Source of the DNA: Escherichia coli
GTDB taxonomy: Bacteria > Pseudomonadota > Gammaproteobacteria > Enterobacterales > Enterobacteriaceae
Assembly: GCF_003334815.1 (NCBI RefSeq)
Contig: NZ_QOWO01000002.1
Direction: 5' to 3' (one strand)
Length of the DNA: 64,000 nt
Position 1 is the first letter of the stretch. Every line of letters starts with the position of its first letter. Positions 1,834-59,296 of this stretch are shown here, piece after piece. Below the pieces are notes generated by a model. That model saw only the letters and a list, made by a program, of their open reading frames with translations, was not told the origin of the DNA and made no database searches. The position numbers and the translations under genes are program-made.

Positions 1834-1921
1834 TGGCGGAAGCGCAGAGATTCGAACTCTGGAACCCTTTCGGGTCGCCGGTTTTCAAGACCGGTGCCTT
1901 CAACCGCTCGGCCACACTTCC
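1834..1921 (-). tRNA. serT: tRNA-Ser (anticodon UGA)
   Basis: Reverse complement reads GGAAGTGTGGCCGAGCGGTTGAAGGCACCGGTCTTGAAAACCGGCGACCCGAAAGGGTTCCAGAGTTCGAATCTCTGCGCTTCCGCCA: a class II tRNA with long variable arm, anticodon loop cU-UGA-aa, 3' CCA encoded. Confidence 0.9.
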
Positions 1922-31839: not shown

Positions 31840-31972
31840 CGCCTGAAAAGACGCGTTTAGCGTCGCATCAGGCATTATGGCGCAGTTGCCGGATGCGGCG
31901 TGAACGTCTTATCCGGCCCACAGGAACTGTAATCTTTGTAGACCGGTTAAGATGCGTCATCGCATCCGGCAA
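31840..31972. repeat. cluster of REP elements (BIME-like) downstream of torD
   Basis: Three imperfect palindromic units containing GCCGGATGCGGCGTGAACG / CGCATCAGGC-type REP motifs. Confidence 0.6.
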
Positions 31973-47300: not shown

Positions 47301-48312
47301 TATAACGCGGATGCAGCGCCGACAGTTTGATTGAAATGCCCGGCCCTTCATAGATGCCACGACCGTTAGACGCTTTACCGATGGCGTGAATCGCCTGCTG
47401 ATAGGAAACCATATACGCCTGTGCATCTGCGGCGGTCAGCGCGGCTTCGCCCAGCATATCGTAAGAGTAACGGAAACCTTTCTCTTCCAGCTTGCGGGCA
47501 TTGGCTAACGCTTCCGCGATGGTTTCGCCAGTGACGAACTGCTCACCCATCAGGCGCATCGCCATATCCACACCTTTGCGGATCAGCGGTTCACCGCTTT
47601 TACCGATAATGCGGTTCAGCGAGCGGGAGAGGCTGGCTTCGTTATGGGTGGAAACCAGTTTGCCAGTAAACAGCAGCCCCCAGGTGGCGGCATTAACAAA
47701 AAGTGACGGGCTACGACCAATGTGTGACTGCCAGTTACCGTTGCTGATTTTGTCGCGAATTAACGCGTCGCGGGTGGCTTTGTCGGGAATACGCAACAAC
47801 GCTTCCGCCAGACACATCAGCGCCACGCCTTCCTGCGATGACAGCGAAAACTCCTGCAATAACCCCTGGACCATACCTGCGCGACCACTGGCATTTTTTT
47901 GATTACGCAGTTTATCGGCCAGCTGATACGCCAGTTTGTGCGCCTGTTCAGCAACTGGCTGCGGCAGGCGGGCTTGTTCCAGCAGCATAGAAACCGCTTC
48001 GGTTTCCGGGCGGCGATAGGCCGCGGTGATCGCGGCGCGGGAAACCGACTGGGGCAATATTTGCTCGGCAAAGTCGAGGAATGGCTGGTGTGGTTCCTCT
48101 GCCGGAGTCGGTGCTTCATCGCTCTCATTGGCCGCGCCAGAAAGCAGCGCAGGTAGCTCCGGCAGAGTATCGCTGTTTTCCAGTTGTTCGAGATAAGAAA
48201 AAATCGCCTGCTTAATTAACCAGTGTGGTGTGCGATCGATACGTGTCGCGGCAGACTTAATACGCTCACGCGTCGCGTCGTCCAGCTTAACCCCCATGGT
48301 GGTGGTTCCCAT
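44350..48312 (-). CDS. putA: bifunctional proline dehydrogenase / P5C dehydrogenase and transcriptional repressor
   Basis: ORF 44350..48378; 1320-aa product from MGTTTMGVKLDDATRERIKSAATRIDRTPHW (RHH DNA-binding N-terminus). Confidence 0.92.
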   Translation of the reverse strand: MGTTTMGVKLDDATRERIKSAATRIDRTPHWLIKQAIFSYLEQLENSDTLPELPALLSGAANESDEAPTPAEEPHQPFLDFAEQILPQSVSRAAITAAYRRPETEAVSMLLEQARLPQPVAEQAHKLAYQLADKLRNQKNASGRAGMVQGLLQEFSLSSQEGVALMCLAEALLRIPDKATRDALIRDKISNGNWQSHIGRSPSLFVNAATWGLLFTGKLVSTHNEASLSRSLNRIIGKSGEPLIRKGVDMAMRLMGEQFVTGETIAEALANARKLEEKGFRYSYDMLGEAALTAADAQAYMVSYQQAIHAIGKASNGRGIYEGPGISIKLSALHPRYSRAQYDRVMEELYPRLKSLTLLARQYDIGINIDAEESDRLEISLDLLEKLCFEPELAGWNGIGFVIQAYQKRCPLVIDYLIDLATRSRRRLMIRLVKGAYWDSEIKRAQMDGLEGYPVYTRKVYTDVSYLACAKKLLAVPNLIYPQFATHNAHTLAAIYQLAGQNYYPGQYEFQCLHGMGEPLYEQVTGKVADGKLNRPCRIYAPVGTHETLLAYLVRRLLENGANTSFVNRIADTSLPLDELVADPVTAVEKLAQQEGQTGLPHPKIPLPRDLYGHGRDNSAGLDLANEHRLASLSSALLNSALQKWQALPMLEQPVAAGEMSPVINPAEPKDIVGYVREATPREVEQALESAVNNAPIWFATPPAERAAILHRAAVLMESQMQQLIGILVREAGKTFSNAIAEVREAVDFLHYYAGQVRDDFANETHRPLGPVVCISPWNFPLAIFTGQIAAALAAGNSVLAKPAEQTPLIAAQGIAILLEAGVPPGVVQLLPGRGETVGAQLTGDDRVRGVMFTGSTEVATLLQRNIASRLDAQGRPIPLIAETGGMNAMIVDSSALTEQVVVDVLASAFDSAGQRCSALRVLCLQDEIADHTLKMLRGAMAECRMGNPGRLTTDIGPVIDSEAKANIERHIQTMRSKGRPVFQAVRENSEDAREWQSGTFVAPTLIELDDFAELQKEVFGPVLHVVRYNRNQLPELIEQINASGYGLTLGVHTRIDETIAQVTGSAHVGNLYVNRNMVGAVVGVQPFGGEGLSGTGPKAGGPLYLYRLLANRPESALAVTLARQDAKYPVDAQLKAALTQPLNALREWAANRPELQALCTQYGELAQAGTQRLLPGPTGERNTWTLLPRERVLCIADDEQDALTQLAAVLAVGSQVLWPDDALHRQLVKALPSAVSERIQLAKAENITAQPFDAVIFHGDSDQLRALCEAVAARDGTIVSVQGFARGESNILLERLYIERSLSVNTAAAGGNASLMTIG

Positions 48313-48338
48313 GCCATTACTCCTGTTGTTCAGAAAGG

Positions 48339-48546
48339 TGCAACTTAACGTTATCGTGAAATATCCATGATGTTGCAACTTTGTGCAACCATGTTAAATG
48401 TGACATGCGTAGCAAGCTTAAAAATGAATGAAATGTTAATAAAAGAAATCGATATGACAGGGATTAAAAAAATAACTCAGACTTTTTCTCTGCGGCAGTT
48501 AACATTTTTGAAAGGTGCAACCGCAAAAAATGTGAGAGAGTGCAAC
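48339..48546. promoter_or_regulatory. put control region with five GTTGCA-type PutA operator motifs
   Basis: GTTGCA/TGCAAC at 48339..48344, 48373..48378, 48384..48389, 48516..48521 and 48541..48546 in the divergent putA-putP intergenic region. Confidence 0.65.
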
Positions 48547-48734
48547 CTGATGAAAAATAGTGTCGCTGAGCACTAAAATTTAATGTAAATGGTGTGTTAA
48601 ATCGATTGTGAATAACCAGCGCTTCCGGCAGGATACGGTCGCCCTGGTAAAACATAAACTCTGTTACCCCGTTCCGGTGGCAGATATAACGGCAAGTTTC
48701 GACATTGCCGATAATAATTTTTTGGAGACTTTAG

Positions 48735-50243
<1,509 letters not shown>

Positions 50244-50337
50244 GGGACTTAGCCTGCGGCGGTTTTGTTTGGCTTCAGCAGCGGGTTGCGCTCCCTTAAT
50301 GTGCCTCGCCATATAAATTGAATGGTGCAGGGAGCGC

Positions 50338-50369
50338 GCAGGGGGCGGCCAATCGCCGCCGCCCCCTGC
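50338..50369. repeat. GC-rich perfect palindrome (12-bp arms, 8-nt loop) downstream of putP
   Basis: GCAGGGGGCGGC-caatcgcc-GCCGCCCCCTGC; not followed by a T-run on either strand. Confidence 0.5.
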
Positions 50370-50540
50370 TGTCCCGGCCTTCGGGGAACGCTTCAGCGAT
50401 TTTGACGCCACCAACACCCGAGCTGTTATTATGTTCCGGGCAAAAAGTTAGATTTGATAATCGCGGATGGACGAAATTGCTTGATATACCCGCTTATCAG
50501 TTTTACATGGAAGCTCTGATGCATTGAGTCTGGACAGTTT

Positions 50541-50575
50541 TGTCGGCTGGATACGGCGTTTACGCGGCATCCGGC
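50541..50575. repeat. REP element
   Basis: GTCGGCTGGATACGGCGTTTACGCGGCATCCGGCA matches the REP consensus. Confidence 0.55.
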
Positions 50576-50707
50576 AAGAACACATGGTTCTTTGCAAACA
50601 ATCCCATCTTTCTACCCTGGAATAATCGTTTATATCCCTTGGCATTACCTCTCTTTGTTTACATTCCAACATCATTTTATAAACATTCCGCTTGTGTTTT
50701 TCTTTGC

Positions 50708-50726
50708 CGTAATGATAATCGCTATC
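50708..50726 (+). promoter_or_regulatory. candidate Fur box upstream of efeU
   Basis: CGTAATGATAATCGCTATC matches the Fur consensus GATAATGATAATCATTATC at 14 of the last 16 positions, about 60 nt upstream of the efeU start. Confidence 0.5.
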
Positions 50727-50785
50727 ACTGCGATTTACTTTTCTTTGCATAGATTGACTCAGAAAAACGTTTAAGGGTGGGTGGC

Positions 50786-51616
50786 ATGTTTGTTCCGTTT
50801 CTCATTATGTTGCGCGAAGGACTTGAAGCCGCGCTGATTGTCAGTTTGATTGCCAGCTATCTTAAGCGTACCCAGCGAGGCCGATGGATTGGTGTGATGT
50901 GGATTGGCGTGTTGCTTGCCGCTGCGTTGTGCCTGGGCTTGGGTATCTTCATTAACGAAACCACCGGCGAATTTCCGCAAAAAGAACAGGAACTGTTTGA
51001 AGGTATCGTGGCGGTGATCGCCGTGGTGATCCTTACCTGGATGGTTTTCTGGATGCGCAAAGTGTCGCGCAACGTCAAAGTGCAACTGGAACAGGCAGTC
51101 GATAGCGCATTGCAGCGTGGAAATCATCATGGCTGGGCGCTGGTGATGATGGTCTTTTTTGCCGTTGCAAGGGAAGGGCTGGAGTCGGTCTTTTTCCTGC
51201 TGGCGGCATTTCAACAAGATGTCGGGATCTGGCCGCCGCTGGGTGCAATGCTCGGTCTTGCTACTGCCGTGGTGCTAGGCTTCCTGCTCTACTGGGGCGG
51301 TATTCGCCTCAATCTTGGTGCATTTTTTAAATGGACCAGCCTGTTTATTCTCTTCGTCGCCGCAGGGCTGGCAGCTGGTGCCATTCGCGCATTTCATGAA
51401 GCCGGATTGTGGAACCACTTTCAGGAAATCGCCTTCGATATGAGTGCGGTGCTCTCAACTCACTCGCTGTTTGGCACGCTGATGGAAGGGATTTTTGGCT
51501 ATCAGGAAGCGCCGAGCGTCAGCGAAGTCGCCGTCTGGTTTATTTATCTCATCCCGGCGCTGGTGGCATTTGCTCTGCCACCACGCGCAGGGGCGACAGC
51601 GTCTCGCTCCGCGTAA
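50786..51616 (+). CDS. efeU: ferrous iron permease EfeU (FTR1 family), apparently intact
   Basis: ORF 50777..51616; 276-aa product from MFVPFLIMLREGLEAALIVSLIASYL with two REGLE motifs (REGLEA, REGLES) in one uninterrupted frame. Confidence 0.88.
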   Translation: MFVPFLIMLREGLEAALIVSLIASYLKRTQRGRWIGVMWIGVLLAAALCLGLGIFINETTGEFPQKEQELFEGIVAVIAVVILTWMVFWMRKVSRNVKVQLEQAVDSALQRGNHHGWALVMMVFFAVAREGLESVFFLLAAFQQDVGIWPPLGAMLGLATAVVLGFLLYWGGIRLNLGAFFKWTSLFILFVAAGLAAGAIRAFHEAGLWNHFQEIAFDMSAVLSTHSLFGTLMEGIFGYQEAPSVSEVAVWFIYLIPALVAFALPPRAGATASRSA

Positions 51617-51673
51617 CAAATACGACGCAAACTCTTGCTTAGTTACAACATACTTTAAAGGGATAGTCTCGTC

Positions 51674-52801
51674 ATGACCATTAACTTCCGCCGTAACGCA
51701 TTGCAGTTGAGCGTGGCTGCGCTGTTTTCTTCTGCTTTTATGGCTAACGCCGCTGATGTGCCGCAGGTCAAAGTGACCGTGACGGATAAGCAGTGCGAAC
51801 CGATGACCATTACGGTTAACGCCGGGAAAACACAGTTCATTATTCAGAACCACAGCCAGAAGGCGCTGGAGTGGGAGATCCTCAAAGGCGTGATGGTGGT
51901 GGAAGAGCGGGAAAATATCGCCCCTGGCTTTAGCCAGAAAATGACGGCGAATTTACAGCCTGGCGAATACGATATGACCTGCGGTCTGCTGACTAACCCG
52001 AAAGGGAAGTTGATCGTCAAAGGTGAGGCAACGGCGGATGCGGCGCAAAGTGATGCGCTGTTAAGTCTTGGTGGTGCAATTACTGCATATAAAGCGTATG
52101 TCATGGCGGAAACCACGCAGCTGGTGACCGACACCAAAGCCTTTACCGACGCGATTAAAGCAGGCGATATCGAAAAAGCGAAAGCACTGTATGCACCGAC
52201 GCGCCAGCACTATGAGCGTATTGAACCGATTGCTGAACTGTTCTCCGATCTGGATGGCAGCATTGACGCCCGTGAAGATGATTACGAGCAAAAAGCCGCC
52301 GACCCAAAATTCACTGGTTTCCACCGTCTGGAAAAAGCATTGTTTGGCGACAACACCACCAAAGGGATGGATCAGTACGCTGAGCAGCTTTATACCGATG
52401 TGGTCGATTTGCAAAAACGCATCAGTGAACTGGCTTTCCCACCTTCAAAAGTGGTCGGCGGCGCAGCCGGACTGATTGAGGAAGTGGCAGCCAGCAAAAT
52501 TAGCGGTGAAGAAGATCGCTACAGCCACACCGATCTGTGGGATTTCCAGGCTAACGTTGAAGGCTCGCAGAAAATTGTCGATTTGCTGCGTCCACAACTG
52601 CAAAAAGCCAACCCGGAACTGCTGGCAAAAGTCGATGCCAACTTTAAAAAGGTCGATACCATTCTGGCGAAATACCGTACTAAAGACGGTTTTGAAACCT
52701 ACGACAAATTGACCGATGCCGACCGGAATGCACTGAAAGGACCGATTACTGCGCTGGCGGAAGATCTGGCGCAACTTCGCGGTGTGCTGGGACTGGATTA
52801 A
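51674..52801 (+). CDS. efeO: periplasmic iron-binding protein EfeO (cupredoxin / M75 peptidase-like)
   Basis: 375-aa ORF with signal peptide [26 protein letters not shown]. Confidence 0.9.
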
Positions 52802-52806
52802 GCGTT

Positions 52807-54078
52807 ATGCAGTATAAAGATGAAAACGGCGTGAATGAACCGTCACGCCGACGTTTACTGAAAGTGATAGGTGCACTGGCGCTGGCGGGAAGTTGTCCGG
52901 TCGCTCATGCACAAAAAACGCAAAGTGCGCCGGGTACGCTTTCACCGGATGCTCGCAATGAGAAACAGCCGTTTTATGGTGAGCATCAGGCAGGGATCCT
53001 GACGCCACAACAGGCCGCAATGATGCTGGTGGCGTTTGATGTGCTTGCCAGCGATAAAGCCGATCTTGAGCGGTTGTTTCGCTTGTTGACTCAGCGTTTT
53101 GCTTTTCTGACTCAGGGCGGAGCAGCACCAGAAACGCCAAATCCGCGCCTGCCACCACTCGATTCCGGTATTCTTGGCGGCTACATTGCGCCCGATAATC
53201 TCACCATCACGTTATCGGTGGGTCACTCATTGTTTGATGAGCGCTTTGGCCTTGCGCCACAGATGCCAAAAAAGCTGCAGAAGATGACGCGTTTCCCCAA
53301 CGACTCGCTGGATGCGGCGTTATGTCATGGTGATGTGTTGCTACAGATTTGCGCCAACACCCAGGACACGGTTATCCATGCGCTGCGCGATATCATCAAA
53401 CACACGCCGGATTTGCTCAGTGTGCGCTGGAAGCGGGAAGGGTTTATTTCCGATCACGCGGCGCGTAGTAAAGGCAAAGAGACGCCGATTAATTTGCTGG
53501 GTTTCAAAGACGGCACTGCCAATCCCGATAGCCAGAATGATAAGTTGATGCAAAAAGTGGTGTGGGTAACGGCAGATCAGCAGGAGCCTGCGTGGACAAT
53601 CGGTGGCAGCTATCAGGCAGTACGCTTGATTCAGTTTCGAGTGGAATTTTGGGACAGAACGCCGCTGAAAGAACAGCAGACGATTTTTGGCCGTGATAAG
53701 CAAACCGGTGCGCCGCTGGGAATGCAGCATGAGCATGATGTGCCTGATTACGCCAGCGACCCGGAAGGGAAGGTGATCGCGCTGGACAGCCATATCCGGC
53801 TGGCGAATCCCCGCACGGCGGAGAGTGAGTCCAGCCTGATGCTGCGTCGTGGCTACAGTTATTCACTGGGCGTCACCAACTCCGGGCAACTGGATATGGG
53901 GTTGCTGTTTGTCTGCTACCAACACGATCTGGAAAAAGGCTTCCTGACAGTACAAAAAAGGCTCAATGGCGAAGCGCTGGAGGAATACGTTAAACCTATC
54001 GGCGGCGGTTATTTTTTTGCGCTGCCGGGGGTGAAGGACGCGAACGATTATTTCGGAAGCGCGTTATTGCGGGTTTAA
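52807..54078 (+). CDS. efeB: Tat-exported DyP-type haem peroxidase EfeB
   Basis: 423-aa [32 protein letters not shown] (twin-arginine signal). Confidence 0.9.
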
Positions 54079-54084
54079 TGTTTT

Positions 54085-54222
54085 TAGGCGGATAAGGCAT
54101 TTGTGCGCAGATGCCTGATGCGACGCTTGCGCGTCTTATCATGCCTACAATCAGTGCGGGTTTGGTAGGCTGGATAAGGCGTTCACGCCGCATCCGGCGA
54201 TCGTGCACTGATGCCTGATGCA
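54085..54222. repeat. REP element cluster (BIME) downstream of efeB
   Basis: Several units: GGCGGATAAGGCATTTGTGCGCAGATGCCTGATGCGACGC..., GGCTGGATAAGGCGTTCACGCCGCATCCGGCG, TGATGCCTGATGC. Confidence 0.6.
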
Positions 54223-54255
54223 AATCCTGCTGAAAGCACACAGCTTTTTTCATCA

Positions 54256-54273
54256 CTGTCATCACTCTGTCAT
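54256..54273 (+). promoter_or_regulatory. Pho box (PhoB binding site) upstream of phoH
   Basis: CTGTCATCACTCTGTCAT: two direct CTGTCAT heptads 11 bp apart, as in the PhoB consensus, about 150 nt upstream of the phoH ORF. Confidence 0.65.
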
Positions 54274-54422
54274 CTTTCCAGTAGAAACTAATGTCACTGA
54301 AATAGTGTTTTATAGTTAAATATAAGTAAATATATTGTTGCAATAAATGCGAGATCTGTTGTACTTATTAAGTAGCAGCGGAAGTTCCCGGCAGTGATAG
54401 TCAGTCACTATGGAGATCGCGG

Positions 54423-55487
54423 ATGGTAACGTCCTGTACTGGACATGTTTTAGATAATCAACGCGCCACCACTCGCGGAGTTTTCTCCTCCGGTAGTCAT
54501 CTCGTCACTTTGCATTTTCAACCTCATCCTTTCTTTTCATGTGTTACCGACGCCGTAAACGGTGCGCGTAGCCGTTTTTCGGCATTTTATCCAAAAGCAA
54601 ACTATGGCTTACAAGGAAGCCAACCCTCTGATGTTCGTGCGCATAATCGCGCTGCCAACGGCGCGTGTGATGAATACAAACAACTCAAGGTGCTCTCCAT
54701 GGGAAGACAAAAAGCAGTGATCAAAGCTCGTCGCGAGGCAAAACGTGTGCTGAGACGGGATTCGCGCAGCCATAAGCAGCGTGAAGAAGAATCGGTCACC
54801 TCGCTTGTGCAGATGGGCGGCGTAGAAGCCATTGGTATGGCCCGCGACAGTCGCGATACTTCGCCCATCCTCGCGCGAAATGAAGCGCAATTGCACTATC
54901 TGAAGGCTATTGAGAGTAAGCAGCTGATATTCGCCACGGGCGAAGCCGGGTGCGGAAAAACCTGGATCAGCGCAGCAAAAGCGGCAGAGGCCCTGATACA
55001 TAAGGATGTCGACAGGATTATCGTCACCCGTCCAGTTCTGCAAGCCGATGAAGATCTTGGCTTCTTACCTGGAGATATCGCAGAAAAGTTTGCTCCCTAT
55101 TTTCGCCCGGTCTACGACGTGCTGGTCCGGCGCTTAGGGGCTTCCTTTATGCAGTACTGCCTGCGACCGGAAATAGGGAAGGTGGAAATTGCGCCGTTCG
55201 CCTATATGCGTGGACGTACCTTTGAAAATGCAGTCGTCATTCTTGACGAGGCGCAGAATGTGACTGCCGCGCAAATGAAAATGTTTTTAACCCGCCTCGG
55301 GGAGAACGTGACGGTTATCGTCAACGGTGATATCACGCAATGCGATTTGCCTCGCGGCGTGTGCTCCGGATTAAGTGACGCGCTGGAACGTTTCGAAGAA
55401 GATGAAATGGTTGGGATCGTCCGGTTCGGTAAAGAGGACTGCGTACGTTCGGCACTTTGCCAACGTACGCTGCATGCCTACAGTTAA
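54423..55487 (+). CDS. phoH: PhoH, phosphate-starvation-inducible ATPase (Walker A GEAGCGKT)
   Basis: 354-aa ORF MVTSCTGHVLDNQRATT... with P-loop; the true start may be internal. Confidence 0.85.
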   Translation: MVTSCTGHVLDNQRATTRGVFSSGSHLVTLHFQPHPFFSCVTDAVNGARSRFSAFYPKANYGLQGSQPSDVRAHNRAANGACDEYKQLKVLSMGRQKAVIKARREAKRVLRRDSRSHKQREEESVTSLVQMGGVEAIGMARDSRDTSPILARNEAQLHYLKAIESKQLIFATGEAGCGKTWISAAKAAEALIHKDVDRIIVTRPVLQADEDLGFLPGDIAEKFAPYFRPVYDVLVRRLGASFMQYCLRPEIGKVEIAPFAYMRGRTFENAVVILDEAQNVTAAQMKMFLTRLGENVTVIVNGDITQCDLPRGVCSGLSDALERFEEDEMVGIVRFGKEDCVRSALCQRTLHAYS

Positions 55488-55505
55488 GTGTGTTATCGGT
55501 GCAGA

Positions 55506-55530
55506 GCCCGGGCGAACCGGGCTTTGTTTT
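55506..55530 (+). terminator. rho-independent terminator of phoH
   Basis: Hairpin GCCCGG-gcgaa-CCGGGC followed by TTTGTTTT. Confidence 0.7.
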
Positions 55531-55536
55531 GGGTGT

Positions 55537-55950
55537 TTATGCCCGGACTAGCGCTTTTTCTGAAACAACCATTTTTATTTGCCCCTGGCTGGTGAAGTGT
55601 ACGCTCATCCTGTGGCTTTTTTGTAGTTGCTGATAGAGCTCATCAGGTATTGCTAAGCTCTCTGCATATTCTTGCGGCGTATATTGGTAGGCTGCATGAT
55701 GCTGCTGTTTTTGAAAACGCAGCTTATTGTACAGCGCCCAGACAATTAACACGACGGCATTCGCCACTGCCAGCAAAAAATAGAACTGAAGTCGGCTTCT
55801 GGCCTCGCTTTGCCAGTAATAACCCGTCAGCAGATCCATGGCGAATAAGAATATGAACAACGCAAATAATGTCCACAAGATGGTTGTGGCAACATAATCA
55901 ACCAGTAAACGTACTGGTGATTGTCGGGTCGTAATAATTAAATTGTTCAT
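55537..55950 (-). CDS. pgaD: PGA synthase accessory subunit PgaD
   Basis: 137-aa two-[31 protein letters not shown].... Confidence 0.88.
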
Positions 55951-55951
55951 A

Positions 55952-57277
55952 TTAACCTCTCAGAATCCCGCGATCGGGACTTACCCAACGGGCGCGTTGC
56001 TTTTTAGGCATCAACATGACTCGTGTAAATGATACCAATGTCGTTGCCAGGCTCAGCATCCAGAAAATAACCGGGAACCAAATAATCCAGAAAAGCGATG
56101 AAGTCAGATTATGCTCATAGCGATTCTCGATCATCAGGCTGACAATAAATTGCAGTAAACATAACGTACACAATAATATTCCGGCAGTATGTGTCGCAGC
56201 GATATGTGTCAATTCAATATTTAACGGTACACCGGCAAGTTGGACTGCGTAAATAATGAAACCGACCAGGCAGGTGAAGGCCCATATTGTCGTCAGGCAG
56301 TATTCAAAAAACAGCGGCCACATTCGAAAGTTTTCTTTGCGCCACAACCTTGTCATATTTTTGAGGAATACTTCTGCACCGCCCTGAGCCCAGCGCAGGC
56401 GCTGTTTCCACAGCCCTTTTAACGTTTCAGGCATTAATATCCAGCACAGTGCCCGTGGCTCGTAAAAAATCGTCCACTGATTCAACTGCAGCTTCCAGCT
56501 AATATCAATATCTTCGGTGATCATATCGTCACTCCAGTAACCCACTTCTGCCAGGGCGCTGCGACGAAATGCGGCAATAACACCGGAAACGGTAAATACG
56601 TTTCCATAGATACGCTGGGTTCGCTTGATCAAACCAATAATTGAGGAATACTCGCCAACCTGAATTTTACCCACCAGGGTAGAACGTGTTCGAATACGAG
56701 GATTACCGGTTACGGCACCCACACGCGGGTTGTACAACATCGGTTCCACAATATATGCCGCCGCATCGCGGTCTAATAACGCATCGCCATCAATGCACAC
56801 CAGATATTCACTTTTCGCCGCGGCAGCTCCGGTTTTAAGCGCAATGGCTTTCCCCTGGTTTTGCGCCAGATGAATGACCCGCAAATGGGGAATTTGTGCA
56901 GCCATGCGATCCAGGATGGCACGGGTTTTATCTGTTGAACCGTCATTTACGGCAATAACTTCAATGTTCTCATAACGCTGTGCTAAAGCGGCGTGTATGG
57001 TTTCCTCAACGTTTTTCTCCTCATTAAAACAGGGAATGATAATGGAGATAGACGGATTATCTTTCAACTGGGGAGCTGGTGCGTTTTCTCCCCACGGCCA
57101 GTGGCGTTCACGATAGACCCAGAAATAGACGCCGCCAACAATCCACATAATGGACATAAAAAACGGCCAGAAGAAAACGAACCTCATCATCAGTTCACCA
57201 GAGTGAAAGTACGCTACGCATAGGGGTATGCATAACACCAGACATAATATAAAAAACGATACGATGCGATTAATCAT
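55952..57277 (-). CDS. pgaC: poly-beta-1,6-N-acetylglucosamine synthase (GT2 glycosyltransferase)
   Basis: 441-aa ORF with GT2 motifs ([13 protein letters not shown]). Confidence 0.9.
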
Positions 57278-59288
57278 TTTTCGGATACCAGGCTGTTGAA
57301 AACTCAGGACGAATAAGGTCTATTTCAGGTTGGTTATGCAGAAAATTGTCGGGATAATAACCATAGTTTTTCACTCCATTCAGTTGTAATAGGCTCATCC
57401 AGTGAGCGAGTTGTTGCGAAGAAATAGCCTGATGCTGACCATTTTTCTGCCAGTTTTGTGCCTGTAATTCTAAAATAGATTTGTCTTTAGCCTGAGGGAT
57501 GTTTTTAATTTGATTGGTCAATTGTATTAACCATTGGTCAGCCGATTTTTCTGCGACACCTTCCAGATAAGGCATAGCCATAATAGCGGTCCAGTCATAG
57601 CTTTTTAGGAAATCAGCATAATTCTGTGCAAACCAGGCTTCACTTTCAGGTTGTATTACCGGAAGTGCAAAAATATTTCGTGCAGTTTTAATATGTGGAC
57701 CGCGAATGGCTTTTACGCGCGCACTAAGTTCTAAAGTGAAGTCAGTTAACGCACGACTTTTAAAGCGGGCCCACTGTTTAAATTGCTCCGGGTTTTGTCG
57801 AATTTCGCTCAGACTCCCGCTAAAGCCTGCTTGCTGATAAGCCGTGATAGCCGGTGCACTGGCATCTTCATAATCTGAAAGCAAAGCATCATCGTGGAAC
57901 AATATGCCATCAAAAGCAGCATGTCCGGCAAGATCTTCATATAACATGCCAACTTGTGCTCTGACTCTGTCATCGAAAGGAGAGAGACGGTGATATTGTT
58001 CAGGATGAATTTGTGCTTTTTTCTCCCCTGTTGGTAAGTATTTTACTCGCGTTAATGTGGGATCTAAATCCCAGCTTAATACCGGCATCCACGCATAGAT
58101 GTTTACACCTGAGCGGGTACGTAATTGCCAGGCAACCCGACTAAAAATATCTGCTTTCATTGGTAGCAAACGATTTGGAAACCAGACCTCTTTGACCAGC
58201 CCATCACCATCGGGATCAGCAAATGCCTGCAAATACACGGTTGATATTTGCATATCTTTCACCCGCTGAATTAGCACATCAATATTGCGATCCATTTGCT
58301 GGAGGTTTTCGTCATAAACGTAATCAAGATCGATATGCATTATCCGTTGTGGTGATTTTTCCTGTACGGTAATAATTTGCTGGGCAAACTCTTTTAATGA
58401 GGGATTATTGGCGATTAATACCCGCGGAATGGAATCCAATTGCGACGCATTTGCCAAACCTGATTCAAGGGTGAAGAACATGTCATAACCGAGTTTTTTT
58501 AATTCCTCTATCGCTATGCCATTCGCTTCGCCATAAGGCCAAACAAAAACGTGTGGATTTACCTCAACCTTTGTACGCAGGTATTCCGTCATTTTTACAG
58601 CATCCAGACGAATTCTTTCCCGGTATTCTGCTGCGGTTTCATACCGTGCGTGGTCAGTAAAATATGCACGATTTACATATACAGGCAATAAGCTGCCGGT
58701 GGCATTAGCCTGAATACCGTAGTGAGAATTCCATGTATGAGAAGCGAGCTCAACGAGCCGGGAACGCGCAACTTCTCGCACTTGTTGCCACGTGGCAAAA
58801 TATTCTCGATCGACCAACTCATCGCCAAATTTTACTTGTTTATCCGCTGGCGTATCGACCCAACTGCCGACGGGGGCCCATACAGCAGGCCACTGGAAGG
58901 CCTGAAGAATTGGGAAGACGCGGGTATAAAAACTCTGGTAGCCGTCATCAAAAGTCAGCACTACAGCTTTTTCCGGTAGCGGTTTTCCTCCTCGATGTGC
59001 TTCACGAATTTGAGCAATACTGACCGGTTGATAACCGTTCTCGCGCAGCCAGGCAAATTGTTCACGCAGTGCTGATGTCCGCACTGACATAAAACGCTGG
59101 TCGGCAGCTTCGTCTTCAACGTTATGCCATGAAATCGCTACAAAACCATTATGCGGCCACGGTTGCTCGGCGAGTAAAGATTCGCGATCCTGTGGCGGTA
59201 TAAATGATGTTCTTGACTGGCTAATGCACGCGGTGAGCATAATTATACTCACCAGCATCAGGAGATATTTATTTCCATTACGTAACAT
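57270..59288 (-). CDS. pgaB: PGA N-deacetylase lipoprotein PgaB
   Basis: 672-aa [24 protein letters not shown] (lipobox), polysaccharide deacetylase family. Confidence 0.9.
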
Positions 59289-59296
59289 ATTTATCC

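Follow-up and report, generated by a model that had tools for sequence, protein, structure and literature searches.

The window, by which we mean the whole 64,000-nucleotide stretch of Escherichia coli DNA analysed here, carries a cluster of three genes, efeU, efeO and efeB, read from the same strand between putP and phoH. The first of them, efeU (50786..51616, + strand), encodes a 276-aa inner-membrane iron permease of the FTR1/OFeT family and is intact: its frame runs from the ATG at 50786 to the stop codon at 51614-51616 (831 nt, that is, 276 codons plus the stop) with no internal stops. A longer version of the ORF, beginning with the GTG at 50777 and adding three codons to the ATG start, figures in the mechanical list of open reading frames; in RefSeq, every annotation of the identical gene starts at the ATG. 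The protein matches the Pfam FTR1 domain PF03239 over residues 1-275 of its 276 (E=2e-89) and scores above the cutoffs of both the NCBIfam EfeU equivalog NF041756 (331.2 bits, cutoff 255) and TIGR00145 (351.7 bits, cutoff 303.8). It contains two REGLE motifs, at residues 10-14 and 129-133, both located inside or beside a hydrophobic segment according to the hydropathy scan. This Kyte-Doolittle scan gave six clear hydrophobic segments; a seventh, at about aa 118-143, stayed below the threshold because of the charges of the REGLE motif. Such a profile, with six segments and a charged seventh at the second REGLE, is consistent with the topology of seven transmembrane helices given for EfeU in a passage of PMC9174327.

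Downstream of efeU, after a gap of 57 nt, lies efeO (51674..52801, + strand), whose product, a periplasmic protein of 375 aa, has a signal peptide at its N-terminus and scores 479.5 bits with the EfeO equivalog (cutoff 270). Only 5 nt separate it from efeB (52807..54078, + strand), the gene for a 423-aa Tat-exported DyP-type haem peroxidase/deferrochelatase (TIGR01412, 617.7 bits vs a cutoff of 428) whose twin-arginine motif reads SRRRLLK. The products of efeO and efeB, as well as PutP and PhoH, are identical to the corresponding K-12 proteins. EfeU itself is 100% identical to WP_000497942.1, the protein found in O157:H7, Nissle 1917, E. coli W, ETEC-2264, 720632 and NCTC9038. The first-pass annotation had described efeU as one intact 276-codon frame for an FTR1-type permease with both REGLE motifs, followed by intact efeO and efeB, and this description is borne out in full: the FTR1 domain is full-length, both downstream products exceed their equivalog cutoffs, and the alignment with functional EfeU, represented by the O157:H7 protein, reveals no disruption of the frame.

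EfeUOB, also called YcdNOB, is reportedly a ferrous-iron transporter, and is said to have been described as such by Grosse and colleagues in 2006. Like EfeU, the yeast Ftr1p/Fet3p system (OFeT), bacterial FtrABCD and the EfeUOB of Bacillus have an FTR1 Pfam domain covering the full protein and two transmembrane REXXE motifs. Permeases of the FTR1 type need a periplasmic oxidising partner, as stated in a section of PMC3832793, and the partners that the literature assigns to EfeU are the DyP peroxidase EfeB and the cupredoxin/M75 protein EfeO, in contrast to the multicopper oxidase of Ftr1p/Fet3p. In the proposed mechanism, iron would pass through the inner-membrane permease EfeU via its two REGLE motifs, with Sec-exported EfeO and the Tat-exported haem peroxidase EfeB as putative partners in the periplasm, and the three proteins together would carry out ferrous iron uptake, chiefly when the pH is low, oxygen is present and iron is scarce. 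The same section of PMC3832793 places the contribution of EfeUOB mainly at low pH, in air and at low iron, and papers citing Cao et al. (2007) present the O157:H7 EfeUOB as a functional low-pH Fe2+ transporter and the K-12 copy as cryptic.

When compared with the EfeUOB systems of O157:H7, Nissle 1917 and W, the window has the same gene order between the same neighbours, and an identical Fur box and proximal promoter. Nothing substantial differs: there are a small number of SNPs, either silent or upstream, and in O157:H7 the putP-efeU spacer upstream of 50657 is unlike that of the window. We conclude from sequence that the efeUOB (ycdNOB) operon of the window is almost certainly the functional wild type of E. 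coli, the activity being taken from the literature on the identical O157:H7 protein. The anatomy of efeUOB in the window is that of the known system, with no departure from it, and both the intact operon and its control by Fur were already known from work published in 2006-2007 and from later genome-wide Fur mapping.

From the Fur box to the efeU start codon (50708..50790), W3110 and E. coli W have the same promoter sequence as the window; slightly farther upstream, E. coli W differs by two SNPs, at 50696 and 50706. A simple scan of 50240..51700 for a sigma-70 consensus promoter gave no match; as a weak guess, the TAGATT at 50750..50755 could be a promoter element near efeU. Three CpxR-like pentamer pairs with a 10-bp phasing, GTCAA-N5-GCAAA-N5-GTAAA-N5-GTGAT (50724..50758, - strand; 1-2 mismatches each), lie between the Fur box and the start codon. 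Individually, pairs of this kind occur at chance level in the window (65 observed vs 50 expected); clustered as they are here, they suggest a candidate location at which the published control by CpxAR might act. Other papers quote RegulonDB as listing CpxR among the regulators of efeU, and control by CpxAR also appears in the title of Cao et al. (2007). In the proposed scheme, CpxAR would additionally modulate the transcription of efeUOB.

One may ask whether the operon, intact as it is, could be physiologically silent or redundant in this strain, either through a weak promoter or through the dominance of Feo, MntH and siderophore systems. The sigma-70 scan, with no consensus promoter, and the mainly acidic, aerobic and low-iron conditions to which the literature confines its contribution would both fit such a proposal; however, the same promoter clearly transcribes efeO and efeB in K-12, where their induction reaches about 200-fold (log2 7.7) in delta-fur W3110 (PMC10164565). 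We consider a silent operon improbable, and hold to the reading of efeUOB as a functional operon.

An antisense ORF of 100 aa (50448..50750, - strand) spans the efeU promoter and the Fur box. In W3110 and some other genomes, PGAP lists this ORF as a 'hypothetical protein' (WP_001326841.1), probably a spurious call. Neither the putP-efeU spacer nor the efeU leader matched an RNA family when the whole window was searched against Rfam. Elsewhere in the window, features at gathering score were an Ysr251 antisense RNA in phoH (55289..55482, - strand), a cspA-type thermoregulator upstream of cspG (20735..21157, + strand), naRNA4 (CssrE; 31840..31918, - strand), ES036 (CssrF; 37805..37847, - strand) and the tRNA-Ser gene serT (1837..1921, - strand).

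The Fur box consists of the 19-mer CGTAATGATAATCGCTATC at 50708..50726 (+ strand), at -78..-60 from the efeU ATG, which shares 15 of its 19 positions with the consensus GATAATGATAATCATTATC; within the 7-1-7 core TGATAATcGCTATCA at 50713..50727, 12 of 14 positions agree. On both strands of the 64 kb, this is the single site with four mismatches or fewer, and the expectation, taken as the mean of 200 dinucleotide-preserving shuffles, is 0.11 such sites per 64 kb, or about 0.0004 per 250-bp upstream region. The same search of the 64 kb with at most three mismatches returned no site because the efeU box has four. The box is invariant in seven diverse E. coli, one of them merely 95% identical in the region, but conservation does not single it out, since E. 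coli strains hardly vary anywhere in 50708..50800. A copy of the Fur-box TGATAATCGC core is found again about 330 bp upstream of efeU, at 50455..50464, within an imperfect inverted repeat (50455..50499, TGATAATCGCGGAT / ATACCCGCTTATCA) whose second arm contains a SNP, at 50487, private to the window.

Published ChIP-exo data place Fur at this promoter. Peaks assigned to 'efeU_1, intergenic' were reported under iron-replete conditions only, in MG1655 (1080516-1080528), W3110 (1081715-1081727) and E. coli W (1188592-1188604; PMC10164565, Dataset 2), and the MG1655 peak was also found by Seo et al. (PMC10164565). With the efeU ATG at 1081778 in W3110 and at 1188655 in E. coli W, these peaks fall at -63..-51 from the start codon, and the MG1655 peak does likewise in v2 coordinates. 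Projected onto the window, the peak occupies 50723..50735, where it covers the last 4 bp of the 19-mer, lies about 10 bp downstream of the centre of the 19-mer, and overlaps an inverted repeat, AATCGC-N7-GCGATT, at 50717..50735. Two further published Fur ChIP-exo peaks, both intragenic (MG1655 v2 1088812-1088843 and 1088996-1089024), would map within pgaB at about 59020..59230, a region in which the scan of the window showed no good Fur-box match. As for the response to Fur, efeO and efeB are derepressed in the delta-fur mutants of nine out of nine strains, with log2 values of 1.1-7.7, and are members of the core Fur regulon (PMC10164565).

It is very unlikely, in our judgement, that the 19-mer is an AT-rich sequence matching the consensus by chance, with the iron control of the operon lying elsewhere or being indirect. 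Its departure from the consensus at four positions, the ChIP-exo interval that shares just its last 4 bp, and a conservation that spans the entire promoter and not the box alone could be taken in that sense. Against it stand the rarity of such sites in upstream regions, the Fur signal seen within about 10 bp in three strains and with iron only, the derepression of efeO and efeB in all nine delta-fur strains, and an independent PWM scan of an ExPEC strain which, in an excerpt of PMC4145685, predicts a Fur box at efeU. The Fur-box-like 19-mer picked out from the letters at the outset thus holds up as a site unique in 64 kb that adjoins and overlaps published ChIP-exo peaks. The control of efeUOB by Fur, resting on the literature, is well supported. 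Repression of efeUOB would come from iron-loaded Fur bound some 50-80 bp ahead of the ATG, on the box at 50708..50726 and the inverted repeat next to it; we infer that Fur occludes the efeU promoter.

The K-12 copy of efeU is a pseudogene (b4490; efeU_1/efeU_2, ycdN) and is annotated in K-12 records as frameshifted. In an alignment of 50540..51700 that comprised the window, K-12, 720632, ETEC-2264 and O157:H7, K-12 and the window turned out to be one base apart: the G at 50891 is absent from K-12, and the GG dinucleotide of efeU codon 36 (50890..50891, + strand) is there a single G, which amounts to a -1 frameshift. Three-frame translation of the K-12 sequence ends after 37 aa and leaves the remainder of EfeU in another frame. 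That efeU is cryptic in K-12 because of a frameshift had been put forward in the first-pass annotation, and this proves correct, with the lesion now located at a single base.

We then examined how the two alleles are distributed among 5,426 complete E. coli genomes, 5,418 of which have efeU. The census relied on probes of 40/41 nt with the indel in the middle, a placement that keeps the opposite allele from seeding a megablast word. Exact copies of the window's intact 41-mer turned up in 3,929 genomes of all backgrounds, and 367 genomes had the K-12 deletion allele; in the other ~1,100 genomes, nearby SNPs block the probe, and the ones examined are annotated as intact. Most of the 60 genomes sampled from the 367 are named K-12 or laboratory strains, among them MG1655, W3110, DH10B, MC4100, XL1-Blue, TOP10, O16:H48 and transconjugant recipients, and a few come from animal, food or human sources, with genomes of about 4.6 Mb and no strain history given. 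Since 3,929 genomes are intact and 367 deleted, an intact efeU is the norm of the species and K-12 is the exception. The pseudogene of K-12 arose by a derived loss of one G specific to its lineage, and the window keeps the ancestral state.

Despite this difference, the window is closely related to K-12. It aligns over its whole length to MG1655 1029792..1094569 with 99.97% identity in two blocks, and the only break in the alignment is IS1D upstream of gfcA, which is absent from the window. A three-way comparison with K-12 and NCTC9038, a natural K-12-like isolate with an intact efeU, assigned six SNPs, the efeU deletion and IS1D to K-12 alone. To the window alone it assigned two single-base deletions and ten SNPs (12512, 20138, 26277, 28262, 29255, 42213, 47701, 50487, 53169 and 54304), six of which are G:C to A:T. 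None of the 5,426 complete genomes matches the window exactly, the best one over 39001..64000 being about 6 mismatches short as judged from scores. Because the window has the non-K-12 state at all seven K-12-private positions and at IS1D, it is not descended from K-12.

It is therefore hard to believe that the intact frame stems from an error of sequencing or assembly, or from a K-12 derivative in which the frameshift was reverted or repaired: the identity to MG1655, the common IS3D junction and two single-base etk deletions that could be read errors are the points in its favour, but the window departs from K-12 at 7/7 private positions (six SNPs and the efeU G) and at IS1D, carries ten SNPs of its own, and has in its GG allele the exact sequence of 3,929 genomes of all backgrounds. 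For an origin by reversion in a K-12 derivative, the pattern of K-12-private and window-private differences rules it out.

The mentioned etk gene (12239..14417, - strand) encodes the protein-tyrosine kinase of the gfc/group-4 capsule cluster. Its two deletions, at 13052 and 13342, occur in the contexts CCGGGC and GCTTATC and are seen against both K-12 and NCTC9038, and the reading frame is lost beyond about residue 388 of 726. This could be either a real pseudogene in the source strain or an assembly error. At the IS1D junction (~19976..19984), the segment corresponding to K-12 1049778..1050545 is missing in the window, as in NCTC9038, and the region upstream of the gfc operon is uninterrupted, though etk downstream looks broken.

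The end of the window (~63676..64000) lies inside an IS3 copy right after dgcT, at the same site as IS3D in MG1655 and NCTC9038, and this shared insertion beside dgcT marks the K-12-like clade. The lineage of the window is a very close sister of K-12 that has the ancestral efeU, and not a distant strain. The efeU reading frame had at first been taken to mark the window as non-K-12, a statement that stands only in part: the G at 50891 does set the window apart from K-12 laboratory strains, but in other respects the window is 99.97% MG1655 and has IS3D in common with it.

A further possibility, which we put forward tentatively and think may well not hold, is that the window comes from a natural lineage at about 16 SNPs per 64 kb from K-12, with IS3D in common and without the efeU frameshift, IS1D and the six K-12-private SNPs, so that the efeU lesion would date to the last steps of K-12 history, possibly to laboratory domestication and not to the wild. 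If true, such strains would be useful as 'pre-K-12' references; this would be a footnote on K-12 ancestry and no new biological system. The G at 50891 of efeU serves as a strain marker that distinguishes K-12 laboratory derivatives from everything else, even from strains that are 99.97% identical. As for most E. coli, the appropriate annotation of the window is a functional efeUOB operon with a Fur operator, and K-12 misrepresents the capacity of E. coli as a species for ferrous-iron uptake.
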